This document shows positions 1 to 17,243 of a stretch of 17,243 nucleotides of DNA, one piece after another; position 1 is the stretch's first letter; the number at the start of each line of letters is the position of its first letter. The position numbers were made by a program, and so were the translations under genes. The notes beneath the pieces are model-generated. The model was not told the origin of the DNA. It worked only from the letters and a program-made list of their open reading frames with translations, and searched no databases. Source of the DNA: Escherichia coli (GTDB lineage Bacteria > Pseudomonadota > Gammaproteobacteria > Enterobacterales > Enterobacteriaceae); the NCBI GenBank assembly GCA_025544715.1, contig GCA_025544715.1_4109.6; one strand, given 5' to 3'.

Positions 1-60
1 ATCTGGTGCAGTACTGGTGAAGATGATTTTTGTAATCATTTCAATCTAGGGGAAGAGTGA
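1..60 (+). CDS. 3' end of an upstream ORF (partial; function unknown)
   Basis: Frame 1 is open from position 1 to TGA at 58-60, which overlaps the next ATG at 60 (TGATG coupling). Too short to classify. Confidence 0.4.
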   Translation: MWCSTGEDDFCNHFNLGEE

Positions 61-416
61 TGGAATTTGATTTTTTAATATCAGTACATTCTTTTAAGCA
101 CAGTTTTCAGTACTTTTGTAATTTAAACAAAGGTGATTTAATGCACAGTGCGAATGAGTATATTCATTACACTCAGGGTAAATTTACATTCATTGATTAC
201 AGTTCATTACAGTATCCACACCAAGATATGCCGGACTATACATTAATGGATACCGCAGAACTATTCCAAGAATCATTAGTATTTGATAAGAAGTACTTGT
301 GTACATTTGAAGAAGTTATTGCAATACAAAATGAAATGAAAGAGTATGCTGCTTTGCATAAACCCAATGCAAGTATTAATCAAGAATACAAATTCAATTT
401 AGGAATTCAAGAATGA
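60..416 (+). CDS. hypothetical protein, FQxS-motif paralog family, short subtype A
   Basis: ORF track 57..416; ATG at 60 preferred over GTG at 57, with GGGGAAGAG upstream. Motif AELFQESLVFD plus CTFEE..QNEMK, shared with the next ORF. Confidence 0.7.
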   Translation: MEFDFLISVHSFKHSFQYFCNLNKGDLMHSANEYIHYTQGKFTFIDYSSLQYPHQDMPDYTLMDTAELFQESLVFDKKYLCTFEEVIAIQNEMKEYAALHKPNASINQEYKFNLGIQE

Positions 417-772
417 CATATGATTATTCTATGTACTATTATAAGTTACCTAAAGGATGGGACTTGTGCTGTAATCTTATTAAGGGAGACTCGGAACATG
501 AGTTGAGTTTATATATGCACTACAAAGATTCTTGTTTTAAATTTATTCATGTATTACATGATGGCTATGACTATGAATCTGAGAGTCTTATAGATTATAC
601 AGTACTAGACGATGGTGAACTATTTCAGGCTGCATTAGTGTTTGATAAGAATAAGTACTCCTGTACATTTGAAGAAATGGTTTCTTTGCAAAATGAAATG
701 AAGAGATTTGAAAAAGAAAACGTATTTAATCCATCCCCATCAAGAACGAATAATTATTATTTCAATATATGA
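413..772 (+). CDS. hypothetical protein, FQxS-motif paralog family, short subtype A
   Basis: ATGA overlap with the upstream ORF. Motif GELFQAALVFD, CNLxKGD, CTFEE, QNEMK; clear paralog of 60..416. Confidence 0.7.
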   Translation: MTYDYSMYYYKLPKGWDLCCNLIKGDSEHELSLYMHYKDSCFKFIHVLHDGYDYESESLIDYTVLDDGELFQAALVFDKNKYSCTFEEMVSLQNEMKRFEKENVFNPSPSRTNNYYFNI

Positions 773-781
773 GATTATAAA

Positions 782-1276
782 ATGACATTACAGAGTTCAT
801 TGGAAAAAGCAAAGAAGATTCATGAGTACATGAATATGGCAAAAGAAGGTTCAGTTTACGGTGTTTTCAAAGACACAAGTACTCAATATTATGTACCGGA
901 TAACCTCCTTTATAATGACTGCTCAGATACAGAAACGTGCGTACTGGATACAGAAACGTGCATACTAGATACCGACCCTAAAGATTATGAATGTTTCATT
1001 GATATGCATTATGAGTACATGGTCTATATTAATGATGCAGATATTACCATCTACAGTACTGACTGCGATTCCGATGACATTATAATTCCGAGTGCAGTTC
1101 TGAATGACCCGTGGGATAGTGAAGAGTATTACTTCCAACAAAGTACTGTATACGATGATGAAGTACTTGATGTTATTATAATTATGTGGTACTTTAAAAG
1201 TATTGGTTCTGGGAACTTCTATTTCGATTACAAATACGTAAAGAAAACTGTAGATAACGGTATTAACAGGGGTTGA
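782..1276 (+). CDS. hypothetical protein, FQxS-motif paralog family, subtype B
   Basis: N-terminus MTLQSSLEKAKKIHEY; C-terminus PWDSEEYYFQQSTVYDDEVLDVIIIMWYFK..FYFD. Contains an in-frame 21-bp tandem duplication (DTETCVL/DTETCIL). Confidence 0.8.
   Translation: MTLQSSLEKAKKIHEYMNMAKEGSVYGVFKDTSTQYYVPDNLLYNDCSDTETCVLDTETCILDTDPKDYECFIDMHYEYMVYINDADITIYSTDCDSDDIIIPSAVLNDPWDSEEYYFQQSTVYDDEVLDVIIIMWYFKSIGSGNFYFDYKYVKKTVDNGINRG
926..967 (+). repeat. in-frame 21-bp tandem duplication within a CDS
   Basis: GATACAGAAACGTGCGTACTG (926-946) followed by GATACAGAAACGTGCATACTA (947-967), 19/21 identical, encoding DTETCVL then DTETCIL. Confidence 0.8.
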
Positions 1277-1277
1277 A

Positions 1278-1748
1278 ATGAGTTTAGAAAGAGCATTAGA
1301 GATTGCGAAGTTAATTGATTTATGCAGCAAAGAAATTGTAGCAAATTGTCTCAATGGATATCTATTCAAGGAAGGTAAATCATATTGTCGAATGATATAC
1401 GATGACAGTAGTGAATATATCCATATGTATGAAGAAAACTTAGATGATTCTGACATAGTACTCACAGGATGTGATGTTAATTTGGAAGATAATTACATGT
1501 ACTTCTGCCGTGATGCTGATATTTTAATCCAAGATTCATTAATTCAAACAGGTGCACCAGAGGTATATCTTCCGTATTCAGTACTGGATAATAACTGGGG
1601 TAGTGAAGATTACTATTTCCAGCAGAGTACTATATATAATGAAGATATACTTGACAAACTTGTTATTTCTTGGTACTTTCATAACACGGATTATAGTAGC
1701 TTCTACATAGACTTGGATCTACTAAGAGTACTTAAAGAGGATATATGA
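1278..1748 (+). CDS. hypothetical protein, FQxS-motif paralog family, subtype B
   Basis: AGGGG RBS upstream. N-terminus MSLERALEIAKLI; C-terminus NWGSEDYYFQQSTIYNEDILDKLVISWYF. Confidence 0.8.
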   Translation: MSLERALEIAKLIDLCSKEIVANCLNGYLFKEGKSYCRMIYDDSSEYIHMYEENLDDSDIVLTGCDVNLEDNYMYFCRDADILIQDSLIQTGAPEVYLPYSVLDNNWGSEDYYFQQSTIYNEDILDKLVISWYFHNTDYSSFYIDLDLLRVLKEDI

Positions 1749-2188
1749 GTTTAGAAAGAGCACTAGAATTAGCCAACAAAATACATCAGTACCATGATAA
1801 AATAAAAAGTGGGTTCTATGCTGATAAAGTACATGCATATGGGAATGAATATTATCTCACAGGAGTAAAGAGATACTCTAATGATATTTTACTTATGGGT
1901 CATGATAAAGACTATACTATACAGTACTCTTCATGTAGTCAATATACTAGTTTTATGGTATATATTCCTGGTACTAAGATTACTTTTGACACATCAAATA
2001 CACCTGTTGACTTCGGGGTACTTGATGGCCCGTGGGGTACTGAAGAGTATTACTTCCAACAGAGTCTCATTTTTAACCAAGAAATGCTTGATTCCTTGGT
2101 TGTGTTGTGGTACTTTAAGGAATTGAATTTTGAACCATTCTTTCTTGACTGGGGGTCATGTGAGTATTTAATTTCAGGGGATTTGTAA
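1745..2188 (+). CDS. hypothetical protein, FQxS-motif paralog family, subtype B
   Basis: ATGA overlap, AGAGGA RBS. N-terminus MSLERALELANKIHQY; C-terminus PWGTEEYYFQQSLIFNQEMLDSLVVLWYFK. Confidence 0.8.
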   Translation: MSLERALELANKIHQYHDKIKSGFYADKVHAYGNEYYLTGVKRYSNDILLMGHDKDYTIQYSSCSQYTSFMVYIPGTKITFDTSNTPVDFGVLDGPWGTEEYYFQQSLIFNQEMLDSLVVLWYFKELNFEPFFLDWGSCEYLISGDL

Positions 2189-2676
2189 TGTCGTTACAAA
2201 GTGCATTGAAAGAAGCAAAGAAAATTCATGAGTTCATGATTATGGTACAGGAAGGTTCAGTACCTGGTGTGTATAAAACATCTGATACGGAATTCTTCGT
2301 TAAGGATAGAGATGATTATGACGAGTCCGAGATATGTGCAGAAACATTAGTACTGCACACTGATACTGGTGACAGTGATAACTGTGAATATCATATGTAC
2401 AATCAGTACATTAGTTATTGCCGTAATGAAGATATTACCATCTACAACACAGATAGTGATGCTGATGACACTATTATTCCTTATTCAGTACTGGAAGGTC
2501 CGTGGGATAGTGAAGAGTTTTACTTCCAGAATAGTACTATCTACAATGAAGAAGAACTGGATGTTATTGTGATTATGTGGTATTTCAAAAGTATTGACTC
2601 CAGTAGTTTCTATTTTGATTATGAATATGTAGAGAATACAGTAGGAGAAGGTAATGTCATTACAAAGTGCTCTTGA
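2188..2676 (+). CDS. hypothetical protein, FQxS-motif paralog family, subtype B
   Basis: TAATG overlap, AGGGGA RBS. N-terminus MSLQSALKEAKKIHEF; C-terminus PWDSEEFYFQNSTIYNEEELDVIVIMWYFK; very close to 782..1276. Confidence 0.8.
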   Translation: MSLQSALKEAKKIHEFMIMVQEGSVPGVYKTSDTEFFVKDRDDYDESEICAETLVLHTDTGDSDNCEYHMYNQYISYCRNEDITIYNTDSDADDTIIPYSVLEGPWDSEEFYFQNSTIYNEEELDVIVIMWYFKSIDSSSFYFDYEYVENTVGEGNVITKCS

Positions 2677-3106
2677 AAAAGCAAAAGAACTACATGGATA
2701 CTTTGAAGATATAAAGGCCGGAAAGTTTAAAGAAGTGTACAAAGCCGAGAACGGTAACTACTACAAAGATGAAATGTATAATAACTCCGTTGGTGTAAGG
2801 GTTATTCTTGGGTTGAATTCCAATAGCCCAGTGTCGTATTCGGAATACAATAGAGATGCAGAATTCATTAGTTATGTTGAAAATGGTAGCATTCGTTTTA
2901 TTAATAGACAAAAACCATTAATTTTGAATTATGAAGTACTGGATGGTCCGTGGGATAGTAAAGAGTATTACTTCCAAAACAGTACTGTATACGATGATGA
3001 AGTACTTGAAGCATTAGTTATTATGTGGTACTTAAAGAGTGTTAACTGTCCTCGATTTTATTTGGATTTCGAAGAACTTCGTAAAGATCCAGAAGGTATA
3101 GAATGA
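2654..3106 (+). CDS. hypothetical protein, FQxS-motif paralog family, subtype B
   Basis: AGGAGAAGG RBS before ATG 2654; overlaps the upstream ORF by 23 nt. N-terminus MSLQSALEKAKELHGY; C-terminus PWDSKEYYFQNSTVYDDEVLEALVIMWYLK. Confidence 0.8.
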   Translation: MSLQSALEKAKELHGYFEDIKAGKFKEVYKAENGNYYKDEMYNNSVGVRVILGLNSNSPVSYSEYNRDAEFISYVENGSIRFINRQKPLILNYEVLDGPWDSKEYYFQNSTVYDDEVLEALVIMWYLKSVNCPRFYLDFEELRKDPEGIE

Positions 3107-3417: not shown

Positions 3418-3725
3418 TGACTAAAAATGAATTTGATTCACTTTGTACGGTTTATAATTCATTGACAGAAATACCTGACTTTATTAATTACATTTCAGCG
3501 TTAAATCATATTATGCATAGTTTTGAACAATCGTTTGAAAAGAAATATTCTGGTAGAAAAGTTCTATGTCATATGTCAATGTACTTAGGAGATGGTGAGC
3601 CTTTCACTACCAGTACTACATGTGAAATAAAAAAATATAATATATTATTGGGCACAATAGAATTCACAGTATCCAATGGTGGTAGTTATATGTACTTTAG
3701 AGATGGTGTGGTTGAATTATTATGA
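3417..3725 (+). CDS. hypothetical small protein (no family motif)
   Basis: TAATG overlap with the upstream ORF; 102 aa; lacks the FQxS core. Coding status rests on coupling and the absence of alternatives. Confidence 0.55.
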   Translation: MTKNEFDSLCTVYNSLTEIPDFINYISALNHIMHSFEQSFEKKYSGRKVLCHMSMYLGDGEPFTTSTTCEIKKYNILLGTIEFTVSNGGSYMYFRDGVVELL

Positions 3726-4168
3726 GTTACGAAAGTGATCTTAAACATGCTGAAGAATTAGTTAATATAGTAAAGTTCTTTCAAAATAATGTAAAGTACT
3801 TAGACGACAAAGGGGCATATATTAGTACTATAAGTGTTGGTACAGATATTCTAGGATTAGGTAATGAATATAAGTACGAGTCCCATGATTATGATTTGGA
3901 ATTCAAGTACTTCGAATGGAATTCTGGAACTTTCTATTCAATCGATGAAAGTGGGGAATATTTAGAATTCTCCGAAGAAGAAGTACTATTCTTAAATTCA
4001 GAATATGCTTACTTCCAGTACAGTACTATATACCCAAGTAGTGCATTAAGAGCTTTAGTAGTTTTTAATGCATTTCTGAAAGAGAACTTTAATAATTCTA
4101 TATTCATTGATTTAAATTATGTATATGAACTAAATCAGGTGATATATATGGAGTCCAGAAAAAAATGA
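3722..4168 (+). CDS. hypothetical protein, FQxS-motif paralog family, subtype B variant
   Basis: ATGA overlap. N-terminus MSYESDLKHAEELVNIVKFF; motif EYAYFQYSTIY; paralog of the next ORF. Confidence 0.75.
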   Translation: MSYESDLKHAEELVNIVKFFQNNVKYLDDKGAYISTISVGTDILGLGNEYKYESHDYDLEFKYFEWNSGTFYSIDESGEYLEFSEEEVLFLNSEYAYFQYSTIYPSSALRALVVFNAFLKENFNNSIFIDLNYVYELNQVIYMESRKK

Positions 4169-4614
4169 GTTACGAAAGTGCAATCAAGAAAGCAAATGAT
4201 ATTCTAAAAGTTGTTAAGTTCTTCAAAGAAAATCCTGAATATCTAGATGATGAAAACCATGATCACGATGAGAGATTGAGACGAAAAATTGTCGCTTTAT
4301 TTGACACTAATGCAGATAATTATAGTCTAATTGAGTTAGCATACGATTATATTTCATTGAACCGAAACGGACATTTAGTTAATATAGAAAGACATGAGAG
4401 TGAAGAATCTTTTAAAATTTCAGACATTTTATCCCTGAGTACTGAAGAAGGGTACTTCCAGGGTAGTACTGTTTATGAACAAGGAACGCTTGACAATCTA
4501 TGCACATTCAGTGTAATATATCAGAAATCAGTACTGGATGTATTTTATCTTGACACTGCTGAACTGGATACACTAATCAATTTTGTTACTACTGAAGAGG
4601 CCACATTTGAGTGA
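4165..4614 (+). CDS. hypothetical protein, FQxS-motif paralog family, subtype B variant
   Basis: ATGA overlap. N-terminus MSYESAIKKANDILKVVKFF; motif EEGYFQGSTVY. Confidence 0.75.
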   Translation: MSYESAIKKANDILKVVKFFKENPEYLDDENHDHDERLRRKIVALFDTNADNYSLIELAYDYISLNRNGHLVNIERHESEESFKISDILSLSTEEGYFQGSTVYEQGTLDNLCTFSVIYQKSVLDVFYLDTAELDTLINFVTTEEATFE

Positions 4615-5147
4615 TGAAAGTTAACATCAATGACTTTGATGCATTACAAGATTTATCAAAAAAGATTCGAACTATCGTACCAGTACTCAAAAAATGTAGT
4701 ACTGGTTTAATCGATCCTAGTACTGTTGTTAATGAGAAGTACAATTTTCATCGTGCATTACAGGGTACAGGTGCATTTCAGAAGTGTGATGTACGTGAGA
4801 AACACGTAATTGATACATCATTGTTTTCTATTGGTGCACCTGTGTCGAATAATTCTATTTTCCTGGATAACGCAGGAAATATTCAACAATTAACATTTAA
4901 GAAAAGGAAAAAGAACAATAACATTGGTGTGTACGCGATGAAGTGGGGTCAACCTGATTTGAAGCGTGAAATTCACATCCCTAAGTACAATTACAATTCA
5001 TTCGACGAACAGTGTTTTCAACTATCGTGTACTGACCCTGACTATGCAATCATTCAGTTCTATATGGAATTGCAGATAGCATTTAACAGTAATTTATATA
5101 TTAACTTGTTGGCAATGAACATCGATGAAGTATTCAAAAACATTTAA
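4614..5147 (+). CDS. hypothetical protein, divergent FQxS-motif paralog
   Basis: ORF track 4611..5147 begins at GTG; ATG at 4614 overlaps the upstream TGA (TGATG). Motif DEQCFQLSCTD. Confidence 0.6.
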   Translation: MKVNINDFDALQDLSKKIRTIVPVLKKCSTGLIDPSTVVNEKYNFHRALQGTGAFQKCDVREKHVIDTSLFSIGAPVSNNSIFLDNAGNIQQLTFKKRKKNNNIGVYAMKWGQPDLKREIHIPKYNYNSFDEQCFQLSCTDPDYAIIQFYMELQIAFNSNLYINLLAMNIDEVFKNI

Positions 5148-5343: not shown

Positions 5344-5512
5344 CATTGCTAAACTATTCAATATATATTCTACTAGAATGATGCAAACAGACTCATATAG
5401 TACTGAATTCAAAGAGTTGAAAGTACTGATGTACTTGGGAACCCAATATCAGGAACAAGTTATTTTGGAATATATTAATTCGTTGAAGAAGGATATCCGT
5501 TATGTACGATGA
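5321..5512 (+). CDS. hypothetical small protein (no family motif)
   Basis: 63-aa ORF overlapping the upstream stop region and overlapped by the downstream ATG at 5502; fits the coupled chain. No motif. Confidence 0.45.
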   Translation: MKIIDQNDIAKLFNIYSTRMMQTDSYSTEFKELKVLMYLGTQYQEQVILEYINSLKKDIRYVR

Positions 5513-6062
5513 TTTAGATCTTGCGTTTGAACGTATGGTAATTTTAATGCAATGTGCAGAAATGCATGAAACAATCCGTCGCACCAAAGGGATTGAATAT
5601 ACAAGTAAACTATTCTCATACGAAAGTCGTCGAGGGATGGATCATTTTTACTGCACTGATTGTTCAAAGTTTTCAGTACTGAAATATTATCATCCTACTG
5701 TTTCCAATAATAGTTTAATATCCACATATGACGGTGATCTGTTTAGTGTAATGTATGACACATTACATCCATCAATTTCAATCTATAAAGATTGCGATAG
5801 TAGTTTATCGTATATAATTGAAGATTACTTATCCCCTAACACTGAAGAGAATATTTTTCAGAACAGTGTATTGCATGATGAATTAAGTATAAAATGCATC
5901 TATATGTTCAATAAGTTAAAAGAATACGCTGATAATAATTACTTAATTGATGAGTTAGCAGTATTGTCTGTTTCCGTTTTTAATACAAATGATATTGATA
6001 TGAAATACTATAATGAGATTTGTAAAGTACATCATATGTATAAGGAACTATTATGCCAATAA
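5502..6062 (+). CDS. hypothetical protein, FQxS-motif paralog family, long subtype C
   Basis: Overlaps the upstream stop. Motif EENIFQNSVLHD followed by a hydrophobic segment. Confidence 0.7.
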   Translation: MYDDLDLAFERMVILMQCAEMHETIRRTKGIEYTSKLFSYESRRGMDHFYCTDCSKFSVLKYYHPTVSNNSLISTYDGDLFSVMYDTLHPSISIYKDCDSSLSYIIEDYLSPNTEENIFQNSVLHDELSIKCIYMFNKLKEYADNNYLIDELAVLSVSVFNTNDIDMKYYNEICKVHHMYKELLCQ

Positions 6063-6655
6063 ATGCAAATAAATGTTGTAGTGCAGATGTGCATTTGTTT
6101 TTTAAGAAATTGGCAAATGATATTATATATATGCAGGAAATGATTTATCACAAACGAGCGGATTTAGAAAAAGCATTAGTACAGTTCTCATTTATGCTTG
6201 ATGGTGATATATTTCTAGAGAGTGATGCATTGCGATTAGTATTAGACAAAAATTCTAAAAGATTTTTATTTCATATAGATAATAAATTATGTTCCTCCGT
6301 ATGTCGTACTTTTTATAATCGTGATTCGGACTTATATCAATTCCTTTATTCTAAAGGTGCAGTAGAAGCATCATATGGTGATGGTTATGCCCTAGGAAAG
6401 AGTATTCCATATATGAAATCATTTAAAATAGAACACATCAGTACTGATGAAGATGCAATGTTCACAAATGATATAACTATGGGACGTGAAGATGCAATGC
6501 GATATATTACAAATTCTATGCATACATTCTTTCAACGAACAGAATTTGATAATGTATATATATCAAATGTAAATATTTTCAATGACCTGTGTCAGTACTT
6601 GAGAAGTGTTTGTGACTTCGATGAAAGTTATTGTAAGCTATACACTGAGGTATAA
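6053..6655 (+). CDS. hypothetical protein, possibly a degenerate family member
   Basis: ATG 6053 overlaps the upstream stop at 6060-6062. 200 aa; only a weak motif remnant (EDAMFTND). Confidence 0.6.
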   Translation: MPINANKCCSADVHLFFKKLANDIIYMQEMIYHKRADLEKALVQFSFMLDGDIFLESDALRLVLDKNSKRFLFHIDNKLCSSVCRTFYNRDSDLYQFLYSKGAVEASYGDGYALGKSIPYMKSFKIEHISTDEDAMFTNDITMGREDAMRYITNSMHTFFQRTEFDNVYISNVNIFNDLCQYLRSVCDFDESYCKLYTEV

Positions 6656-6660: not shown

Positions 6661-7023
6661 ATGAACACATTAAGTATTACATACTATACAACTAAAAAAT
6701 TAGTTACTTGTTTAATATCTTTGAAGACAAACCATGATGATATGTTTGATATGGCTGCATATGAATTAGAATTATCAGAAGATGGCTTCAAGAGCTATGA
6801 AGTATATAGCTATGTCCGTGAAGATGTAATTGACACTACACTAATGCAAGAGGATGAGTTATTCCAAGAAAGTTTAGTATGGGATAATAAGTACGATTGT
6901 AACTTTGATTTCTTATGTTTAATCCAGAAAGAAATGAAAAGAATCTTTGATAATTATCCAATCAAACGTTTCAGTACTGCACCTGAGCAATATAAAAGGA
7001 TTATATTCACCTATGAAGATTGA
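6661..7023 (+). CDS. hypothetical protein, FQxS-motif paralog family, short subtype A
   Basis: GAGG upstream. Motif DELFQESLVWD .. IQKEMKRI. Confidence 0.7.
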   Translation: MNTLSITYYTTKKLVTCLISLKTNHDDMFDMAAYELELSEDGFKSYEVYSYVREDVIDTTLMQEDELFQESLVWDNKYDCNFDFLCLIQKEMKRIFDNYPIKRFSTAPEQYKRIIFTYED

Positions 7024-7390
7024 ATTTGAAGTTATTACATATAGTATAGGTAATGGTATCCGTTGCTATGTACAAGCAAGGCATATGGTTCCTGATGATA
7101 AACTGTCACCCAAAAGCTTCTGTATCACACAAGATCTCTTAGATATCAACGGAGAGTACAAGTACATATATTATCTTACTAAGGGTTATTGTAGTACACG
7201 TGGTTTTAATATTGTAGCTGTTTCTAGAGATGAAATTGATGATTTAACTGAGTACGGGGAAGAAGAGATGTTCCAGTACAGTACTGTTTTTAATGAACTG
7301 GATGTGTTTCTGTTACGAAAAATACAACACATTATGCAAGAATGTTTGCATCATAAGAGAGGTATTGTATGCGACGTGAATCTGAATTAG
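7013..7390 (+). CDS. hypothetical protein, FQxS-motif paralog family, subtype B-like
   Basis: ORF track 6947..7390; I prefer the internal ATG at 7013 (AAAGGA 12 nt upstream, 11-nt overlap with the upstream ORF instead of 77). Motif EEEMFQYSTVFN. Confidence 0.65.
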   Translation: MKIEFEVITYSIGNGIRCYVQARHMVPDDKLSPKSFCITQDLLDINGEYKYIYYLTKGYCSTRGFNIVAVSRDEIDDLTEYGEEEMFQYSTVFNELDVFLLRKIQHIMQECLHHKRGIVCDVNLN

Positions 7391-10006: not shown

Positions 10007-10497
10007 TGAACCGAAAGTACAGAGAAACTATGAAGTTCGCCAAGGAGTGTTTAGAAGTGTTTGAGTTTATCAATGCTCATAAAGATTTACTCCATAGATA
10101 CATTGCAATCAGTGAGACAGATGACCATAGGTACATATGTTCTCGAATTCAAGATAAGATATATAAGATTGTGTTCTCGGAAACATACACAGATACATCT
10201 AATTCACTATATGATTTTGCACGTACTGATTACGTTTCATACAAATCTTGGTCTGATAGTATTAAAATTGTGCACAAGCAAAATACATTTTATTCTTTTC
10301 TTACGGACATTTCCGAAGAAAGTTACTTTCAAAACAGTTTAATTTATACAGAAAAAGAACTCAAAATGTTATACATTATGTCGTACTTTAAAAAGTACTG
10401 CAAATTTAATACATTATCTTTTGAGATTTCTGCAATGAAAGTATTCATTAAAAATGTAAAAGAATTAAAGAGGGTTTTTAATGTACATAGAAAATGA
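10006..10497 (+). CDS. hypothetical protein, FQxS-motif paralog family, subtype B-like
   Basis: ORF track 9994..10497 begins at TTG; ATG at 10006 overlaps the upstream TAA (TAATG), with TGGAGAGA upstream. Motif EESYFQNSLIY .. MSYFKK. Confidence 0.7.
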   Translation: MNRKYRETMKFAKECLEVFEFINAHKDLLHRYIAISETDDHRYICSRIQDKIYKIVFSETYTDTSNSLYDFARTDYVSYKSWSDSIKIVHKQNTFYSFLTDISEESYFQNSLIYTEKELKMLYIMSYFKKYCKFNTLSFEISAMKVFIKNVKELKRVFNVHRK

Positions 10498-11023
10498 GAA
10501 TGTAAAATGCATTACTGACATTTGTATAAAATTAATGAAAATTTTCATTAACCCAAAATACAAAAAACGTTCATTACATCATAATATTGATGAGCATTGT
10601 ACCATTAATATACTAGGTAGTATTCTTGATGTAAAATATGATGGTAAAATGTTATTCGGCATAAGAGAAGAGAAAATAGATGATGCATTCTTTTCCTGTA
10701 AAGATAAATTTGAACCTTCTGATTATAAAGTAATTATTCGTGATGATAGCATCTACATTAGTAGTGATTATTCAAATTACTTCGATAAAATATACACTGA
10801 AAACGTTGACTACCATTATGAAATGATAGATTTACCAGTAACAGACATTGATATGGAGAGAATCAAATTTTCATTATCAGATAATGAGTACTTAGGTATA
10901 CAAACATATTATTCACTACAAGGAAAGATTCCACCTGCTATGTATATAAGGATTGAGATTGGTAATGTATTCAATGATAAGGTTATATCAATTGCTGATA
11001 AAATATTGAGGGTTGAATTATGA
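10481..11023 (+). CDS. hypothetical protein, possibly a degenerate family member
   Basis: GAGGG RBS 6 nt before ATG 10481. 180 aa; core motif not clearly recognisable. Confidence 0.6.
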   Translation: MYIENENVKCITDICIKLMKIFINPKYKKRSLHHNIDEHCTINILGSILDVKYDGKMLFGIREEKIDDAFFSCKDKFEPSDYKVIIRDDSIYISSDYSNYFDKIYTENVDYHYEMIDLPVTDIDMERIKFSLSDNEYLGIQTYYSLQGKIPPAMYIRIEIGNVFNDKVISIADKILRVEL

Positions 11024-11583
11024 ATATCAATGATTACCAATTTCATAGGCTTGAATTTCGTCATTGTGTTGCATTTGCAAAAACATTGATGTGCATCATT
11101 GACACTCTTTCATCCAAACAATTTCGTAAGGATAATGATTTATTTCTGAAAAAAGGTCGTGTAACATCAACCGATATCGGTATTGAACTATTTGTTGATA
11201 TCAGTGTTGATACCGGAGACAGTACAAGGGTTGGTTGTATAGGTCATATTGGTACACATTGCTTCACATGGAATCCAAATACAAGTCAAGTGCGAATTGA
11301 TTATAGAAATTCACGTTGGGTTGATCTTAGTACTGAATCAGATTTAGAATCAGCTATGTTCCAGCTAAGTTTAATTCACAATCCTAATGAACTTCTTTAC
11401 ATTATTACTTTCAGTTATCTGTTACAAAACTACGATAATCCATCAGGGTTTTTCATAGAATCGGATATAGAAGAAATTATGGAAGAGTTTCCTAGTTTAA
11501 AGGATATTCTGGTAGAAAAAGATTTCTATGAAGACTTCAGAGATTTATACGACATGCACTTGGAGTTATTTAAGAATGGATAA
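11020..11583 (+). CDS. hypothetical protein, FQxS-motif paralog family, long subtype C
   Basis: ATGA overlap, GAGGG RBS. Motif ESAMFQLSLIHN followed by a hydrophobic segment. Confidence 0.7.
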   Translation: MNINDYQFHRLEFRHCVAFAKTLMCIIDTLSSKQFRKDNDLFLKKGRVTSTDIGIELFVDISVDTGDSTRVGCIGHIGTHCFTWNPNTSQVRIDYRNSRWVDLSTESDLESAMFQLSLIHNPNELLYIITFSYLLQNYDNPSGFFIESDIEEIMEEFPSLKDILVEKDFYEDFRDLYDMHLELFKNG

Positions 11584-12120: not shown

Positions 12121-12125
12121 ATGGC

Positions 12126-12154: not shown

Positions 12155-12181
12155 TGATTTTAAATAGAGTTGGAGGAATCT

Positions 12182-12748
12182 ATGAGTACTGAATTAATTA
12201 AAGAAGTCACATTACTTCTGAAGCATTGTTTTAAGTTCATTCCTGATACTGGTTCCCGCCAGTACATTAAAGTTAATGAGAAATATAACATCAATATCCT
12301 TGTATCTGAAACTGCGAGCAGTTATGCTAACATTGAGTTGGATTCTGAAGAAAAATATACAGTATTACAAATCATAGCAGATGTACAACGTAAACAAGAT
12401 TATCGTTCTTCATTTTACAACGATCATCTATGTGTTTCCTCAAACTTCAGTGAGAATAAAATTGTGTATAAAAATTTATACACACATGAAGTGATTGATA
12501 CATATAATTATAAAATTACATCTGATGAATACAATGTGCTAATGTTCAACGCAAACCTTTTATATGATGCCAGTACTGTACGCTGTTTAGAGTTAGCATA
12601 TAAAATTCCAAAGATCATGGAAAGAAAAGATTTGATTCACTTTAAAACTATTTTAAAATACAGTACAAAAGAATTAGAGGATTTAGTACAGGCTCTTAAG
12701 AATTTCATTAATGAACATGTACCTGTTAAATTCGAGGATGCACAATGA
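12182..12748 (+). CDS. hypothetical protein, possibly a degenerate family member
   Basis: ORF track 12170 begins at TTG; ATG at 12182 is preceded by GGAGG (12172-12176). Only a weak motif remnant (NVLMFNANLLYD). Confidence 0.65.
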   Translation: MSTELIKEVTLLLKHCFKFIPDTGSRQYIKVNEKYNINILVSETASSYANIELDSEEKYTVLQIIADVQRKQDYRSSFYNDHLCVSSNFSENKIVYKNLYTHEVIDTYNYKITSDEYNVLMFNANLLYDASTVRCLELAYKIPKIMERKDLIHFKTILKYSTKELEDLVQALKNFINEHVPVKFEDAQ

Positions 12749-13329
12749 ACCATATCAGAACTAAAATTTTGAGACTCATGCATGACATTGCAGAACTTTC
12801 AGAGATTCATGACATTACGGAAATTGTTGAATTTGATAATTATCGACTGAAAATTGAAAACAAATCCAAACATCGTTTTGGTTCAGTTCAGTTGGATGTA
12901 TATAAAACTTATGAATTTTCTAAAAAAATTAAAAGTTCATGGGATACGATTACTATGTACATTCGCACATCCAGAAATCGTGAACGTATTGGTTCTATTT
13001 CTTATAATATGGTATTTGCGAATGCATTACATGAAAAAATGAATAAAATTGTAGAATCTAATTTCAGTGAAGATGATGGTTTTATTGGGTTGGATGTTCC
13101 ACCAGAATTAGATCAAAGTGAAGATATTCGAGATGCATTCATTTTCCAGAAATCATTGTTGGACAATTACAAAGAATTCGAGTACTTAATGCTTTGTTAC
13201 GATACTGCAAAAATTCTTGATTGTGGTGAACTAGTTATGTACAATGATTTTATCAATTGCAAGACTGATGTTCTGAATACACTACTTCAAAATATAGAAT
13301 CTGTTAAGGAAAAATATGAACGCTTATAG
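12745..13329 (+). CDS. hypothetical protein, FQxS-motif paralog family, long subtype C
   Basis: ATGA overlap, GAGGA RBS. Motif DAFIFQKSLLDN. Confidence 0.7.
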   Translation: MNHIRTKILRLMHDIAELSEIHDITEIVEFDNYRLKIENKSKHRFGSVQLDVYKTYEFSKKIKSSWDTITMYIRTSRNRERIGSISYNMVFANALHEKMNKIVESNFSEDDGFIGLDVPPELDQSEDIRDAFIFQKSLLDNYKEFEYLMLCYDTAKILDCGELVMYNDFINCKTDVLNTLLQNIESVKEKYERL

Positions 13330-13897
13330 TTATATGACAGAACGCCATCAATTATTATATGATATCAGTAAAAAAATGCTATCAATTGTTGGTAGTGCGA
13401 AAGAAATTGAAAAACAATATCTCATCCGTGATGTAGCAATTTCATCTAAATGTTGGTCAAATGAATATTACGACCACGGTATTCTGACTATTTCAGGGGC
13501 CAGAAATATTTGTATTGTAAAAAATAAAAGTAAAAGTAATAAAGAGTGTGAGATTAGAACCGATATACAAATTAAGGATGATGGAAGTTTTTCACATCAC
13601 CCATTCCATATTAGTACTGTTGGTGTTTTATATAATATTAAAGTACTATTCGGTGATGAAGAGTATGTGTTAAAAGCTATCAATCCAGAATCAAGTACAG
13701 TTGAAGAAGAACTGTTCCAGATGAGCACTGTTATACCTGAAGAGGTTCTTAGTACTGTTATTTTTTGTAGTTTAATTTATCATGAATACAAAAAGAACCA
13801 GTTCGATTTCCACATGTTAGGAACGTACATCTTCAATAATTTGAATGTAGATCGTTTAAATGCATTAAATTCAGCAATGGATAAGGTGCTACAATGA
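13316..13897 (+). CDS. hypothetical protein, FQxS-motif paralog family, long subtype C
   Basis: AAGGAAA RBS. Motif EEELFQMSTVI followed by a hydrophobic segment. Confidence 0.7.
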   Translation: MNAYSYMTERHQLLYDISKKMLSIVGSAKEIEKQYLIRDVAISSKCWSNEYYDHGILTISGARNICIVKNKSKSNKECEIRTDIQIKDDGSFSHHPFHISTVGVLYNIKVLFGDEEYVLKAINPESSTVEEELFQMSTVIPEEVLSTVIFCSLIYHEYKKNQFDFHMLGTYIFNNLNVDRLNALNSAMDKVLQ

Positions 13898-14322
13898 CAA
13901 GAGATGATTGTTTGTACATATGGGATATAATTGAAACTACACTTTCAAATCCAGAAAATTATAAAACAAAAAAAAGACAACGACACAAAATATGGATAGA
14001 TTTGTTCGTTGAGGGCATACACGCAGTGACTATTTGGGATTCACCGAGGGCATCAGCATCTACTCTATTGGACAATGAATGCATTGATTGCATTAATTCC
14101 ACTTTTCATCTCTACGGTACTACATTTTTCGGTACATTTCTGGATATTGAAAGTAAAGATGATATTGATTCACTTGCGTTACAATACCAAGTACTGTATA
14201 ATACTAAATTAATTTACGATTTAGTACTAGCTTCTTATGTGTATAAATTAATGATGAAATATAATCATATTTCTGTTTCAGTTTATACTAAGGATATTCT
14301 TTCATTAAGAGACAAAACATGA
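13894..14322 (+). CDS. hypothetical protein, possibly a degenerate family member
   Basis: ATGA overlap. Degenerate motif SLALQYQVLYN. Confidence 0.6.
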   Translation: MTRDDCLYIWDIIETTLSNPENYKTKKRQRHKIWIDLFVEGIHAVTIWDSPRASASTLLDNECIDCINSTFHLYGTTFFGTFLDIESKDDIDSLALQYQVLYNTKLIYDLVLASYVYKLMMKYNHISVSVYTKDILSLRDKT

Positions 14323-14828
14323 GTTTATTAAATGCACGCGAATTAGTTGAGATGTATGAGATTTTGTCTTCATATAAAAATTCTCATGGAGATGTGATTC
14401 TCGACAAAAAGTTCCATGTCAGTGTTGAACATATATCAAATATAGATATGATTTCTTTGGTGGAAAGTAATAAGTCAGGTCTTGAACGCGATATCATGCG
14501 TTTGATTTATATTCCCAAACCATCATATACTAATGATAGTTCAATTAGTAATGAGACATTCATGTATAGTCCCGGTACGGATTCTACTATAGTATCGCTG
14601 TCCAATAAATCAATGGGTACTTTCCAATTCATCTATACCAGTACTGATAACATTGAAGAAATTGAATTTCAAAACAATACATTAAGTCCATGTAGTAGTG
14701 TTATAACCTTTATGTCATATCTATGGTCAACTAAAACAAGTGCTGTTGTATATAGTTCAAATTATACACAAGATAGTATTGTTGAATCATATAAAGTTCT
14801 AAAGGAATACTATGAAAATAACAAATGA
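14319..14828 (+). CDS. hypothetical protein, FQxS-motif paralog family, long subtype C
   Basis: ATGA overlap. N-terminus MSLLNARELVEMYEIL; motif EEIEFQNNTLS. Confidence 0.65.
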   Translation: MSLLNARELVEMYEILSSYKNSHGDVILDKKFHVSVEHISNIDMISLVESNKSGLERDIMRLIYIPKPSYTNDSSISNETFMYSPGTDSTIVSLSNKSMGTFQFIYTSTDNIEEIEFQNNTLSPCSSVITFMSYLWSTKTSAVVYSSNYTQDSIVESYKVLKEYYENNK

Positions 14829-15393: not shown

Positions 15394-15399
15394 ATTTGT

Positions 15400-15425
15400 A
15401 CCAGGGGTTGACTCTGGTATTTTTG
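15400..15425 (+). terminator. intrinsic terminator (candidate)
   Basis: Stem TACCAG / CTGGTA with a 9-nt loop (GGGTTGACT), then TTTTT, directly after stop codon 15391-15393. Confidence 0.5.
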
Positions 15426-15437
15426 TATGATACATTG
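15409..15437 (+). promoter_or_regulatory. candidate promoter (TTGACT-N17-TACATT)
   Basis: TTGACT at 15409-15414 inside the terminator loop, and a weak -10 (TACATT) 17 nt downstream; followed by strong RBS AAAGGAGA and ATG 15455. Weak -10, so low confidence. Confidence 0.3.
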
Positions 15438-15454
15438 TCCTAAAGGAGAATTTT

Positions 15455-16006
15455 ATGAACTACAATCATGATCTTTTTACATTATGTGCATCCAAATGTG
15501 TTGATGGATGGGCAGATAAAATCAATACCATAATTCATCGATATCTCGTCTTTAGTTCTCGTGCACGAAGTGAGGGAGCTATGGATTTCAAATATACACT
15601 ATCCATTGATGGTGTAACTATCCATGCAGACGAAGAACGTATGAGCATTAATTTGTATGATTCCTGTGTATTTGCTATTCACCAAAAGATGGGGAAAGGA
15701 TGGGGTTGTAATAACATTAACTCCAAAGCTATCTTTTGGGTTGGTCACCACCAGACCGTACTCGATCCTTCAATCAAATCTAATCTTTTAACCGACAACA
15801 TCGTTTATGATTTAGCGTACCCTGAAGAACTACATTTCCAGTTGAGTACATTACATAATTTGGCACACTACGATGATTGTTATAAAACATTAGAACTATG
15901 CCATTCCCTTGATCTTAAAGATAAATTGATACAAGTTTACCCTTCATTCTTTCATGAAGAAGTACAAAGTACACTAGATCATATTTTATATGGATACGAT
16001 AAATGA
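15455..16006 (+). CDS. hypothetical protein, FQxS-motif paralog family, long subtype C
   Basis: Strong RBS AAAGGAGA 4 nt upstream. Motif EELHFQLSTLHN. Confidence 0.75.
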   Translation: MNYNHDLFTLCASKCVDGWADKINTIIHRYLVFSSRARSEGAMDFKYTLSIDGVTIHADEERMSINLYDSCVFAIHQKMGKGWGCNNINSKAIFWVGHHQTVLDPSIKSNLLTDNIVYDLAYPEELHFQLSTLHNLAHYDDCYKTLELCHSLDLKDKLIQVYPSFFHEEVQSTLDHILYGYDK

Positions 16007-16605
16007 GAAAAAGTTATCAAGAAGCTATTGACTTAATTCGTGAAGTTATCAAGGTGGCTCCTGCTGCTATTGAGTTCAAGAAGTCCATATACAAGAAGTA
16101 TGGTTCAATGTCGAGTATGTGCTTTCAAAAGAAACGTAGAGCATTCACTACCCAGTACTGGAATGATTCTATCATCCTGAGCAATGAGACTCAGCGTATT
16201 TTAACACTAGAATCTGAACCTACTGATTACGGGGAAGGGAACATTTGTGTACCTGATTATGATGAAATTAACTTCAACTGCGGTGATTTTGAAACAACAT
16301 TATTACTTCATGAGGGTTATCCAGAAGGTGATGTATTAGCTGAGTACAATCCAAAAACTAAAATTCTCAAAAGTGGAATCCAGTTCACTATTAATAACAA
16401 AGATGATGTTCAAGCAGCACTGATGCAACTGAGTACAAGTGAACCTATCACTATTAGTGTAGAAGAGTTATGGGGAATTATTTCAGTACTCAATGAGTGC
16501 TACAAAGTAAAATCATTGCGTAAACACAGCATTATATTACATACCAATATGGCAAATATAAAATGTAAGCACATTCAAGAAATGGTGGTTCCAGATGGAC
16601 TTTAA
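16003..16605 (+). CDS. hypothetical protein, divergent family member
   Basis: ATGA overlap. Divergent motif AALMQLSTSE. Confidence 0.6.
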   Translation: MRKSYQEAIDLIREVIKVAPAAIEFKKSIYKKYGSMSSMCFQKKRRAFTTQYWNDSIILSNETQRILTLESEPTDYGEGNICVPDYDEINFNCGDFETTLLLHEGYPEGDVLAEYNPKTKILKSGIQFTINNKDDVQAALMQLSTSEPITISVEELWGIISVLNECYKVKSLRKHSIILHTNMANIKCKHIQEMVVPDGL

Positions 16606-17179
16606 AGAAATTGAAAGTAAGTTAAAGTACTTCAAAGATATCAAACTTCTTTGGAAAAAGTATAAAGTTGATTACAATTTCAGTGATGATGAGACAATAA
16701 AATACATTGAGATTAATATCAAAATCAAGTTCAAGAATAATAATTATGGTGAAGTAACCTTAAATCATACTGGTATATCACTCAAGGACTATGATGGTAC
16801 AACACTCGCATATTTTGACTTCACACCAGAACCAGGTGAAACACTACTTAGTGAGATAAATTCCTATGACATGGAAGTGTTCGGCGGGAATCCGTTACTG
16901 TTCCGACTTTCTGAAGAGTGGAGTGAAGAGTACTACACTTACAAAGATGGTGTAGTACTTGATATTCATGGAGAAGTTGTGAATGACTTGGAAGAACGTT
17001 TGTTCCAAGAATTGTGTGTTTCAAATACTTCATATGCATACAATCATATCCTTGACATGTTTGATTTATATAGTAAAATAGATGCTGAAATGAAGGCACA
17101 TGGTATTCATTACCTTACAATTAACGACTATGCTCAACTCGAAACCGCTGTGAAAGCATTGACTAAAGTACTGAAATAG
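16595..17179 (+). CDS. hypothetical protein, FQxS-motif paralog family, long subtype C
   Basis: Overlaps the upstream ORF by 11 nt. Motif EERLFQELCVSN. Confidence 0.65.
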   Translation: MDFKEIESKLKYFKDIKLLWKKYKVDYNFSDDETIKYIEINIKIKFKNNNYGEVTLNHTGISLKDYDGTTLAYFDFTPEPGETLLSEINSYDMEVFGGNPLLFRLSEEWSEEYYTYKDGVVLDIHGEVVNDLEERLFQELCVSNTSYAYNHILDMFDLYSKIDAEMKAHGIHYLTINDYAQLETAVKALTKVLK

Positions 17180-17188
17180 GAATGAAAT

Positions 17189-17243
17189 ATGAAACTGTAT
17201 CATGCGAGTACTGTAAAAATTGATAACTTTTATATCCCGTATG
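17189..17243 (+). CDS. 5' end of a downstream ORF (partial; function unknown)
   Basis: ATG at 17189, 9 nt after the upstream stop; open to the window end (MKLYHASTVKIDNFYIPY...). Confidence 0.4.
   Translation, partial: MKLYHASTVKIDNFYIPY

Follow-up and report, generated by a model that had tools for sequence, protein, structure and literature searches.

A hyper-abundant AGTACT palindrome in the genomes of Rak2-like jumbo phages of Enterobacterales

An early-region gene array rich in AGTACT

The stretch of DNA analyzed here (the window; contig GCA_025544715.1_4109.6 of an Escherichia coli assembly, 17,243 bp, 32% G+C) is 97.9% identical to positions 169,587-186,975 of Escherichia phage 121Q, and its close relatives are the Asteriusvirus jumbo coliphages, e.g., PBECO4, G17, phAPEC6, and Sharanji. 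Coordinate transfer places it roughly 37.5-54 kb in from the genome's left physical end. The window is nearly filled, from 57 to 17179, by about 35 small open reading frames (ORFs) of 100-200 amino acids on the + strand, with start and stop codons that often overlap. These ORFs form one paralogous early-region family that carries the motif E-(E)-x-x-F-Q-x-S-[T/L]-[V/I/L] in its C-terminal half and is annotated as 'hypothetical' throughout all relatives. The subject of this study is the palindromic hexamer AGTACT, together with the octamer CAGTACTG that contains it. AGTACT is present in large excess in the window, and the excess is not confined to the paralog array but is genome-wide and common to at least four genera.

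Exact searches of the window found 66 copies of AGTACT (3.8 per kb), in comparison to 5.0 ± 2.1 (maximum 10) in 200 dinucleotide-preserving shuffles, and 15 copies of CAGTACTG, in comparison to 0.20 ± 0.48. A preliminary description of the window, made by rough tally, had reported about 60 and about 15 copies where fewer than ten and fewer than one were naively expected; the shuffles bear out those expectations, and the excess is larger than was stated. All three octamers given there as examples (9-16, 1579-1586, and 2486-2493) were recovered. The enrichment is nested, from GTAC (176 copies vs. about 50 expected) to AGTAC and GTACT (each 2.5-2.7 times the codon null described below) and then to AGTACT. 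A maximal-order Markov model predicts 56 copies of AGTACT in the window, but this explanation is only apparent, because the model uses the word's own sub-words.

When codon phases are assigned with the ORFs of at least 80 amino acids, AGTACT is read as AGT-ACT 26 times, as xxA-GTA-CTx 21 times, and as xAG-TAC-Txx 16 times, with four sites outside the ORF set (Table 1), in agreement with the three phases first described. The preliminary description had named a codon-aware null as a possible refutation, and the excess survives it: the coding sequences (CDS) of the window hold 63 copies, in comparison to 15.7 ± 3.6 after synonymous shuffling that keeps the protein and pools the codons, and 17.5 ± 3.7 after synonymous shuffling within genes. 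Likewise, the 15 copies of CAGTACTG compare with 0.9 under a codon-preserving null. An artefact of codon usage or protein motifs is thus excluded by both the pooled and the within-gene shuffles, as well as by codon-pair counts.

The other alternative raised at the outset was inheritance of the SVLD and FQxST codons among recent duplicates. Clustering of the 30-nt flanks resolves the 66 sites into 55 independent contexts, so that paralog inheritance accounts for 11 sites at most, and the family-conserved FQxST, SVLD, or DEVLD positions hold only 16 of the 66 sites, in five clusters. Duplicate inheritance therefore cannot account for the excess.

One pair of ORFs in the array, 6661-7023 and 6947-7390, overlaps by 77 nt (6947-7023) in different frames, and the octamer at 6972-6979 lies inside this overlap. 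The TTG start of the second ORF (6947) may be mis-called, as the 121Q annotation begins later.

Table 1. Positions and reading of AGTACT in the window, with the promoter region sampled in Cronobacter phage GAP32
Feature	Positions	Codon phase	Context
AGTACT in CAGTACTG (9-16)	10..15		ORF truncated at window start
AGTACT	109..114	xAG-TAC-Txx	FQYFC
AGTACT	292..297	xAG-TAC-Txx	KKYLC
AGTACT	601..606	xxA-GTA-CTx	YTVLD
AGTACT	654..659	xAG-TAC-Txx	NKYSC
AGTACT	878..883	AGT-ACT	TSTQY
AGTACT in CAGTACTG	1055..1060	AGT-ACT	YSTDC
AGTACT	1142..1147	AGT-ACT	family motif FQQST
AGTACT	1162..1167	xxA-GTA-CTx	DEVLD
AGTACT	1457..1462	xxA-GTA-CTx	DIVLT
AGTACT in CAGTACTG	1580..1585	xxA-GTA-CTx	YSVLD
AGTACT	1626..1631	AGT-ACT	family motif FQQST
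AGTACT	1727..1732	xxA-GTA-CTx	LRVLK
AGTACT	1923..1928	xAG-TAC-Txx	IQYSS
AGTACT	2349..2354	xxA-GTA-CTx	TLVLH
AGTACT in CAGTACTG	2487..2492	xxA-GTA-CTx	YSVLE
AGTACT	2533..2538	AGT-ACT	family motif FQNST
AGTACT	2935..2940	xxA-GTA-CTx	YEVLD
AGTACT in CAGTACTG	2981..2986	AGT-ACT	family motif FQNST
AGTACT	3001..3006	xxA-GTA-CTx	DEVLE
AGTACT	3612..3617	AGT-ACT	TSTTC
AGTACT	3795..3800	xAG-TAC-Txx	VKYLD
AGTACT	3824..3829	AGT-ACT	ISTIS
AGTACT	3906..3911	xAG-TAC-Txx	FKYFE
AGTACT	3982..3987	xxA-GTA-CTx	EEVLF
AGTACT	4022..4027	AGT-ACT	family motif FQYST
AGTACT	4438..4443	AGT-ACT	LSTEE
AGTACT	4465..4470	AGT-ACT	family motif FQGST
AGTACT in CAGTACTG	4530..4535	xxA-GTA-CTx	KSVLD
AGTACT	4682..4687	xxA-GTA-CTx	VPVLK
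AGTACT	4698..4703	AGT-ACT	CSTGL
AGTACT	4719..4724	AGT-ACT	PSTVV
AGTACT	5399..5404		outside ORFs of at least 80 aa; 121Q annotates two very small genes in the region
AGTACT	5422..5427		outside ORFs of at least 80 aa; same small-gene region
AGTACT in CAGTACTG	5675..5680	xxA-GTA-CTx	FSVLK
AGTACT in CAGTACTG	6440..6445	AGT-ACT	ISTDE
AGTACT	6594..6599	xAG-TAC-Txx	CQYLR
AGTACT in CAGTACTG	6973..6978	AGT-ACT and xxA-GTA-CTx	two-ORF overlap, read FSTAP and VSVLH
AGTACT in CAGTACTG	7280..7285	AGT-ACT	family motif FQYST
AGTACT	8157..8162	xAG-TAC-Txx	YKYFH
AGTACT in CAGTACTG	8644..8649	AGT-ACT	family motif FQYST
AGTACT	8965..8970	xAG-TAC-Txx	AEYFD
AGTACT	9140..9145	xxA-GTA-CTx	VKVLN
AGTACT	9430..9435	AGT-ACT	YSTLS
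AGTACT in CAGTACTG	9472..9477	AGT-ACT	ISTED
AGTACT	9734..9739	AGT-ACT	ISTNY
AGTACT	9963..9968	xAG-TAC-Txx	DEYYE
AGTACT	10394..10399	xAG-TAC-Txx	KKYCK
AGTACT	10887..10892	xAG-TAC-Txx	NEYLG
AGTACT	11329..11334	AGT-ACT	LSTES
AGTACT	12185..12190	AGT-ACT	MSTEL
AGTACT in CAGTACTG	12572..12577	AGT-ACT	ASTVR
AGTACT	13181..13186	xAG-TAC-Txx	FEYLM
AGTACT	13613..13618	AGT-ACT	ISTVG
AGTACT	13642..13647	xxA-GTA-CTx	IKVLF
AGTACT	13751..13756	AGT-ACT	LSTVI
AGTACT	14190..14195	xxA-GTA-CTx	YQVLY
AGTACT	14223..14228	xxA-GTA-CTx	DLVLA
AGTACT in CAGTACTG	14640..14645	AGT-ACT	TSTDN
AGTACT in CAGTACTG	16154..16159	xAG-TAC-Txx	TQYWN
AGTACT	16485..16490	xxA-GTA-CTx	ISVLN
AGTACT	16626..16631	xAG-TAC-Txx	LKYFK
AGTACT	16929..16934	xAG-TAC-Txx	EEYYT
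AGTACT	16954..16959	xxA-GTA-CTx	GVVLD
AGTACT	17167..17172	xxA-GTA-CTx	TKVLK
AGTACT	17207..17212		3' of last complete ORF
GAP32 promoter region	sample 11183-11603		two repeated early-promoter types, AGTACT at fixed positions

AGTACT across the 121Q genome

Genome-wide counts were made on the complete genome of 121Q (348,532 bp), which contains 903 copies of AGTACT where about 100 are expected. This 9-fold excess is the highest among all 4096 hexamers, the 99th percentile of the observed/expected ratio being 2.5, and CAGTACTG occurs 194 times in comparison to an expected 3.4-4.4 (44-57-fold). About 84% of the AGTACT sites (755/903) are intragenic. Within the predicted CDS there are 750 copies, in comparison to 217 ± 13 after within-gene synonymous shuffling (z of about 41), divided among the phases as 366 AGT-ACT, 144 xAG-TAC-Txx, and 240 xxA-GTA-CTx, and the density in non-coding DNA (4.7 per kb) is higher than that in coding DNA (2.4 per kb). 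The codon-aware ratio lies between 2.8 and 4.5 in every 25-kb bin, in early and late modules alike; it is similar for genes on the + strand (3.42) and the - strand (3.23) and for genes of all lengths, and the metagene profile along genes is flat.

The effect extends to the choice of codons and of amino acids. Of the Ser-Thr pairs encoded by 121Q, 52% are written AGT-ACT (366 vs. 102.5 expected), and the contexts xxA-GTA-CTx (240 vs. 53.6) and xAG-TAC-Txx (144 vs. 22.6) are similarly enriched. Ser-Thr dipeptides occur at 1.44 times the expected frequency but Thr-Ser at 0.98 times, and Val-Leu at 1.39 times but Leu-Val at 0.99 times; the pressure for AGTACT is strong enough to bias dipeptide usage. 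The genome also encodes, at 75,464-75,555, a tRNA-Ser with the anticodon ACT (confirmed with ARAGORN), directly cognate to AGT, one of the two codons that make up each phase-0 site, as well as a tRNA-Thr(TGT). The tRNA-Ser(ACT) may be a translational accommodation of AGTACT.

The sequence around the word is itself symmetric. In 121Q, including the non-coding sites, AGTACT is preceded by C in 46% of cases and by G in 6%, and is followed by G in 54% and by C in 3%. Around the GTAC core, a left-hand A tends to be accompanied by a right-hand T (odds ratio 3.1). From this flank symmetry and the co-occurrence of A and T, the word is therefore described as H-AGTACT-D, with CAGTACTG preferred. Among the one-mismatch neighbors, those mismatched at the outer positions are the most enriched, and all occur at or above expectation except AGGACT/AGTCCT, including AGTATT/AATACT (1.07-1.24-fold) and AGTGCT/AGCACT (1.7-fold). 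Half-sites with AGTAC only on the top strand or only on the bottom strand are balanced over the genome (471 vs. 397), and regional polarity is confined to a single 7.6-kb block, described below. The only recurrent short distances between sites, 18-22 bp, stem from a dual promoter arrangement.

Among other words, 121Q carries the E. coli Chi sequence GCTGGTGG in 18 copies on the + strand and 11 on the - strand, in comparison to about 1.1 per strand expected from composition (about 12-fold), and the window has none. CTGGTG, TGGTGA, and GGTGGT rank with the top hexamers in both 121Q and Serratia phage BF.

Related phages, hosts, and avoided palindromes

Four further phages show the same excess in genome samples. 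AGTACT ranks first among hexamers in Serratia phage BF (Eneladusvirus; 86 vs. 12.2 expected, 7-fold), Klebsiella phage RaK2 (Alcyoneusvirus; 119 vs. 12.0, 10-fold), Cronobacter phage GAP32 (Mimasvirus; 253 vs. 13.8, 18-fold), and XbC2 (Mimasvirus, reported on Xanthomonas; 124 vs. 11.0, 11-fold). The GAP32 sample additionally contains 38 copies of CAGTACTG, in comparison to an expected 0.6. In a sample of the more distant Pseudomonas jumbo phage PA5oct, AGTACT occurs three times where 14.3 are expected, and in 36 kb of the unrelated, phi92-like coliphage BME3 it does not occur at all where 11.1 are expected; the frequency of GCGC is normal in both. BME3 shuns largely the same palindromes as 121Q, and since it holds no AGTACT, the word is one to avoid for ordinary coliphages. 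In E. coli, AGTACT is found at 0.06 per kb, in comparison to 2.59 per kb in 121Q, a contrast of about 40-fold.

The enrichment stands against a background of palindrome loss. Of the 64 six-base palindromes, 121Q lacks 24 altogether, each with at least four G/C, among them GGTACC, CGTACG, CTGCAG, CAGCTG, CCATGG, GGATCC, GTCGAC, GCATGC, and TGGCCA. AGTACT is the sole strongly enriched palindrome, the next highest reaching 1.6-fold. Among the NGTACN words, GGTACC and CGTACG are thus lost (both also absent from the window), TGTACA is as frequent as expected, and AGTACT is enriched 9-fold. The preliminary description had called such an excess unusual for a phage, a judgment that the 24 lost palindromes and the empty BME3 sample reinforce.

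The tetramer GCGC is absent from all 348,532 bp of 121Q, in comparison to 6.8 per kb in E. coli; it is also absent from the window, where about 10 copies are estimated from base composition, and from the samples of BF, RaK2, GAP32, and XbC2, where 18-55 are expected. As the absence of GCGC is constant across hosts, it suggests a phage-encoded cause, e.g., a GCGC-specific nuclease directed against host DNA. The set of absent palindromes, on the other hand, varies by genus (GGTACC is enriched in RaK2), and such genus-specific sets match what host restriction would produce. In combination, the constant excess of AGTACT and absence of GCGC alongside the varying loss of other palindromes suggest that the phages themselves carry the cause.

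Conservation and turnover of sites

Conservation was assessed by comparison with Ecwhy_1 (83% identity), fEgEco12 (81%), and PBECO4 (95%). At 83% identity, 46 of 59 AGTACT sites are conserved, in comparison to 24.4 expected from phase-matched hexamers. In codons whose amino acid is conserved, the bases of the motif are kept in 134 of 138 cases, in comparison to 112.7 for the same codons elsewhere (z = 4.8). Third codon positions are 96% identical inside AGTACT and 78% identical outside, and for four-fold sites the values are 94% and 67%. A control for the local rate, using the synonymous sites within ±90 nt, gives z = 5.0.

Site positions are nevertheless not static. About 13-21 AGTACT sites in the region are private to each lineage, and the recent branches show 13 events in the window, eight gains and five losses, three of the gains being double substitutions. 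Between 121Q and BF, at about 70% identity, 15 of 41 sites are shared, in comparison to 18.6% of control hexamers, and despite this turnover the density is equal (41 vs. 45 sites). This is the signature of selection that acts on density as well as on individual sites.

The constraint was initially proposed to act on DNA rather than on protein, and four lines of evidence now converge on this view: the excess over codon nulls in both the window and 121Q, the higher density in non-coding than in coding DNA, the conservation of synonymous positions in AGTACT well above that of the same codons or of neighboring synonymous sites, and the reverse-complement symmetry of the C(-1)/G(+1) flanks, non-coding sites included.

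Phage-encoded methyltransferases

Searches with Pfam identified in 121Q a Dam-family N6-adenine methyltransferase (PF05869) and a compact C5-cytosine methyltransferase (PF00145). The search for methyltransferases suggested in the preliminary description was thus fruitful with regard to the genes, while a GTAC-type specificity of their products stays putative. The C5 enzyme, encoded by gene 91 (piece L002:12483-13343, 286 amino acids), aligns end-to-end with the catalytic domains of the mammalian DNMT3A/B/C enzymes (E of about 1e-23), which are its closest solved relatives and which it matches better than M.HaeIII or M.HhaI; its target-recognition domain must accordingly be very short. Among the phages with a conserved C5 enzyme are Asteriusvirus, CBB, GAP32, XbC2, and RaK2/K64-1. 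The Dam-type enzyme is shared by the same phages and by Eneladusvirus relatives, and so by all AGTACT-rich genera checked; CBB and GAP32 carry additional copies. The paper on PA5oct makes no mention of a methyltransferase.

Gene 92 of 121Q, whose ORF shows translational coupling to that of the C5 enzyme, has no Pfam match and no Vsr-like domain. As it is confined to Asteriusvirus and has no recognizable domain, it was rejected as a clade-wide partner of the methyltransferase. Eight further ORFs around the Dam-type gene showed no DNA methyltransferase or nuclease domains.

The DNA of these phages is canonical, being cut as predicted by ten restriction enzymes (ScaI and RsaI not among them), and bulk hypermodification is therefore absent. 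Protective methylation of AGTACT is plausible because other coliphages purge the word and some 900 sites left unprotected would put the phage at serious risk. Cleavage by SmaI, ClaI, and NruI implies that there is no CpG methylation at the sites of these three enzymes. BME3, however, has homologs of both enzyme families and not one AGTACT, so that such methylation is no more than a putative explanation.

A selected word and its putative reader

AGTACT is a DNA-level word kept by selection, and this conclusion is far more secure than the fuller reading that follows, which is put forward tentatively: AGTACT, a selected word of the kind known as highly iterated palindromes (HIPs), may be recognized by a symmetric phage-encoded reader, probably through methylation, and may serve to mark phage DNA. 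AGTACT, preferably as CAGTACTG, is maintained at one per about 260-390 bp throughout the Rak2-like jumbo phages of Enterobacterales, in all codon phases, on both strands, and in intergenic DNA, promoters, and terminators. We infer that double-stranded AGTACT is read by a protein of two-fold symmetry that is encoded by the phages rather than their hosts, since the trait tracks phage phylogeny across hosts and is absent from the related Pseudomonas jumbo phage. The putative reader most likely is, or includes, one of the clade-conserved orphan methyltransferases, either the Dam-type or the DNMT3-like C5 enzyme, although this is unproven. Methylation would shield about 900 sites that are eliminated elsewhere as restriction targets, and the methylated word would become a dense phage-specific mark, at 2.6 per kb where E. 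coli has about 0.06 per kb. Combined with the absence of GCGC, such a mark would separate phage from host DNA without hypermodification of bases, and it may serve nuclease protection, transcription switching at early promoters, recombination or replication, or compaction.

Several observations weigh against this proposal. The spacing of AGTACT sites in 121Q is near-random (coefficient of variation 1.18), and nothing in it suggests structural phasing. Two asymmetries are not what a purely symmetric reader would produce: the 7.6-kb block at 161,799-169,383 of 121Q, which contains 41 copies of AGTACA and none of AGTACT or TGTACT, and the imbalance in the window between AGTACA (33 copies) and TGTACT (seven copies); counted per CDS, these are 34 vs. 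16.1 under the codon null (z = 4.9) and 6 vs. 7.1, respectively. A biased repair drive could in principle also yield the apparent conservation of sites. With regard to the candidate enzymes, no close ortholog of the C5 enzyme was found for the Eneladusvirus sample among the best 60 matches, and BME3 carries a C5-enzyme homolog of 51% identity plus a small methyltransferase, yet has no AGTACT, so these enzyme families, the C5 family included, fail as predictors of the excess. Phage Dam-family enzymes, in turn, are classically specific for GATC.

A more elaborate form of the proposal, and a rather unlikely one in our estimation, is a two-word code for self and non-self in the unmodified Rak2-group phages, with (C)AGTACT(G), possibly methylated and read by a phage protein, as the positive word and GCGC as the negative word. 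In this code, a putative phage nuclease would destroy host DNA by targeting GCGC, which the host carries roughly once in 150 bp and which is missing from about 350 kb in every genus; the conserved block with AGTACA alone would be a region barred from full recognition during early infection; and the whole would be a sequence-coded functional equivalent of the hydroxymethylcytosine (hmC) system of phage T4.

Alternative explanations

The most serious rival, owing to the 7.6-kb block and the flank pattern of half-sites, is an oriented single-strand signal, in which (C)AGTAC is read by an enzyme that translocates along or reads the template, e.g., a Chi-like regulator of a helicase-nuclease or a primase site, and the palindrome is merely the cheapest way to put the signal on both strands. 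The block belongs to the same paralog family as the window and ends about 200 bp before the window's homologous start. All of its AGTACA copies are on the + strand, where they occupy the three phases as well as intergenic DNA, and GTAC is followed by A in 57 of 63 cases. In comparison to codon-aware nulls, AGTACA is in excess (38 vs. 6.5-12.9) and GTACT is lacking (0 vs. 4.7-9.3), and the two orientations of AGTAC are represented by 50 and 2 half-sites. The block is conserved in Ecwhy_1, where the positions of AGTACA turn over but are never replaced by AGTACT. The reader thus distinguishes AGTACT from AGTACA, and one block of the early region selects against the palindrome and for its one-sided variant. 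No such block was seen in the samples of GAP32, RaK2, XbC2, and BF, which do not necessarily include the homologous regions. A second AGTACT-poor stretch lies at 155,501-159,568 of 121Q, where GTAC is nearly absent.

The block and the skew toward AGTACA in the window favor an oriented signal, as does the enrichment of neighbors mismatched at outer positions. Outside the block, half-intact sites hold the flank preference on the intact side only, with C(-1) at 32% and G(+1) at 18% for AGTACA, and C(-1) at 19% and G(+1) at 32% for TGTACT. The roughly 12-fold enrichment of true Chi further indicates that the phage exploits signals of this type. However, there is no polarity elsewhere in the 348 kb, whereas Chi and FtsK-orienting polar sequences (KOPS) are skewed; the two halves of the word co-occur beyond independence; and AGTACA in the block keeps both flank preferences (C(-1) 41%, G(+1) 39%), so that its 'dead' side resembles a crippled palindrome rather than a free half-site. 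As for primase, known sites are trinucleotides, which require no enrichment. An oriented signal is on balance unlikely, albeit worth serious attention.

A neutral drive, in which methylation-coupled repair of the very-short-patch (Vsr) type or another biased mismatch repair generates AGTACT with no function of its own, was proposed by Elhai for HIP1, the cyanobacterial HIP, and has been considered in the HIP1 literature. The conservation of a C5-cytosine methyltransferase in most of the clade would suit such a drive, and the double substitutions (three of the eight recent gains, on a branch of about 5% divergence) suggest a directional process; a drive would also mimic conservation. Nonetheless, the expected depletion of the repaired neighbor is not seen, with AGTATT/AATACT and AGTGCT/AGCACT all above expectation, which speaks against a Vsr-like drive, and no Vsr-like gene was found beside the methyltransferase. 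A route from GCGC to GTAC by double deamination of 5-methylcytosine also fails, as the GTAC excess of about 1300 compares with only about 190-290 expected GCGC, and the A/T flanks would be required in addition. Furthermore, a genome-wide process cannot yield a conserved block that is free of AGTACT and rich in AGTACA, it leaves the fixed promoter positions conserved between genera unexplained, and for HIP1 itself the analysis of conservation favored selection over repair. We regard a neutral drive as decidedly unlikely.

AGTACT could also be an element of early or middle promoters and of terminators, with the intragenic copies as by-products or cryptic elements. In sigma-70-like early promoters of 121Q, it occupies -19 to -14, just upstream of the -10 box (TTGACA-N10-11-AGTACT-G-TATAAT); in others it abuts or overlaps the -35 box (AAAAAGTACTTGCAA...TATAAT), and some promoters carry it at both positions, 20-22 bp apart. 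The same dual layout is repeated in GAP32 (AAAAGTACT-TTGACA-N11-AGTACT-T-TATAAT). Several terminators have stems or loops built from AGTACT, e.g., GGAATCCAGTACTGGATTCC followed by a T run in 121Q. The word is densest at 130-155 kb of 121Q (about 131-155.5 kb), a promoter-rich region with two repeated early-promoter types and terminators formed by AGTACT pairs. This region is probably the long terminal repeat; in fEgEco12, a direct terminal repeat of 20,993 bp has been described (fEgEco12 paper). Within it, 135.2-137.2 kb holds many AGTACT sites and no annotated gene.

Despite these placements, most promoter-like sequences lack the word, which stands 7-8 nt upstream of the -10 box in 21 of 107 matches, and the 66 sites of the window show no association with -10 or -35 boxes. 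The flat metagene profile and the uniform ratio in early and late modules likewise speak against a transcription signal, and a promoter element need be neither palindromic nor synonymously conserved across genes. Because about 84% of the sites are intragenic, promoter use is one employment of AGTACT and not its explanation, and a transcription signal as the general cause is very unlikely.

An explanation at the level of RNA, in which the self-complementary AGUACU forms structures or an RNase motif, is highly improbable: nearly all of the DNA is transcribed, so position alone would allow such a role, and two copies can pair and do so in terminators, but the density is higher in non-coding DNA, a 6-bp AU-rich duplex is weak, and the symmetric flanks and near-equal ratios for + and - genes fit double-stranded DNA. 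The accompanying version, in which codon, motif, or duplication bias produces an artefact, could draw on the 16 window sites at family-conserved positions; it is already refuted by the codon-aware nulls, which fail by z = 12-41, and by the 55 independent contexts. The least probable explanation is recruitment or titration of an Enterobacterales DNA-binding protein such as the nucleoid-occlusion factor SlmA, for instance to block cell division, which the AGTACT at the center of the 12-bp SlmA site GTGAGTACTCAC, the filamentation of Sharanji-infected cells with DNA spread through the cell, and the restriction of the trait to phages of Enterobacterales and not Pseudomonas PA5oct might recommend, but which is largely refuted by the flank requirements, as SlmA needs G1, T2, a purine at position 3, and then A4 and G5 (PMC3020112), whereas position 3 in the phages is C in 44% and G in only 6-10%, GT/AC is not enriched, 121Q has four GT.AG..CT.AC sites and no perfect SlmA site in 348 kb, and XbC2, reported on Xanthomonas, shows the same excess.

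Relation to known systems

The closest known phenomenon is the cyanobacterial HIP1 (GCGATCGC) and its alternate HIPs, to which AGTACT appears analogous. Three traits by which HIP-type words are known are observed here: an excess of an order of magnitude across the genome, occurrence in all frames and between genes beyond codon usage, and conservation beyond controls. Both are short, hyper-abundant palindromes with nested enrichment (GTAC, AGTACT, and CAGTACTG here; GATC, CGATCG, and GCGATCGC in HIP1), both have sites conserved between genomes above background, and in both the one-mismatch variants are biased to the outer positions. HIP1 genomes and these phages also share two orphan methyltransferases, one N6-adenine and one C5-cytosine, although the cognate link is putative here. 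AGTACT is not HIP1 proper, as CGATCG occurs once in the 348 kb of 121Q. It also differs in that the word is AT-rich, 6-8 bp in length, and located in a virus, unlike HIP1 of cellular genomes; its over-representation is 9-18-fold for the hexamer and about 44-57-fold for the octamer, in comparison to 15-300-fold for HIP1; the phage genome otherwise eliminates palindromes; and the island of an oriented variant has no known HIP1 counterpart.

Other systems are more distant. Chi (RecBCD) and the DNA uptake sequences (DUS) and uptake signal sequences (USS) are likewise over-represented short words by which a DNA-processing machine tells its 'own' DNA apart, tolerated in genes in all frames at a coding cost, and the corresponding contrast with foreign DNA is about 40-fold here. 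Additionally, DUS/USS often form inverted pairs in terminators, as AGTACT does. These words, however, are non-palindromic and orientation-dependent, with Chi skewed between strands, while AGTACT is palindromic and polar only in the 7.6-kb block. The Dcm/Vsr-related excess of CCWGG in E. coli resembles AGTACT as a methyltransferase-linked palindrome raised by repair bias, and the phage has a C5 methyltransferase, but the deamination neighbors are not depleted, no Vsr homolog was found, and the effect far exceeds that in E. coli. Restriction-site avoidance is very strong in these genomes, yet AGTACT goes the opposite way and is thus not an avoided site. The hmC and glucosyl-hmC of T4-type phages offer a functional analogy only, as DNA of a lytic phage made distinguishable by nucleases and transcription factors; the DNA here is canonical, and discrimination would lie in the presence or absence of a word, perhaps with site-specific methylation.

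No report of an AGTACT excess was found in the searchable literature or in the papers on Sharanji, phAPEC6, CBB, fEgEco12, and PA5oct. HIP-type words as such are already known, and a highly iterated palindrome in a phage clade appears to be new.

Significance for jumbo phage biology

In phage genomics, short palindromes are viewed as liabilities that are purged under restriction pressure, and AGTACT runs counter to this view. A clade of phages of about 350 kb purges palindromes more than almost any other phage, yet pays a coding cost to maintain one of them at 9-18 times its expected frequency. This implies an unrecognized sequence-reading function that has been retained ever since these genera separated. 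In practical terms, the combination of high AGTACT and zero GCGC is a k-mer signature for spotting this group of phages in metagenomes, and the coding constraint is a caution against 'codon-optimizing' or otherwise recoding these genomes for therapy. More broadly, AGTACT provides a tractable viral model for the 30-year-old puzzle of HIP1 and a testable handle on how jumbo phages that neither form a nucleus nor hypermodify their DNA manage or mark it.

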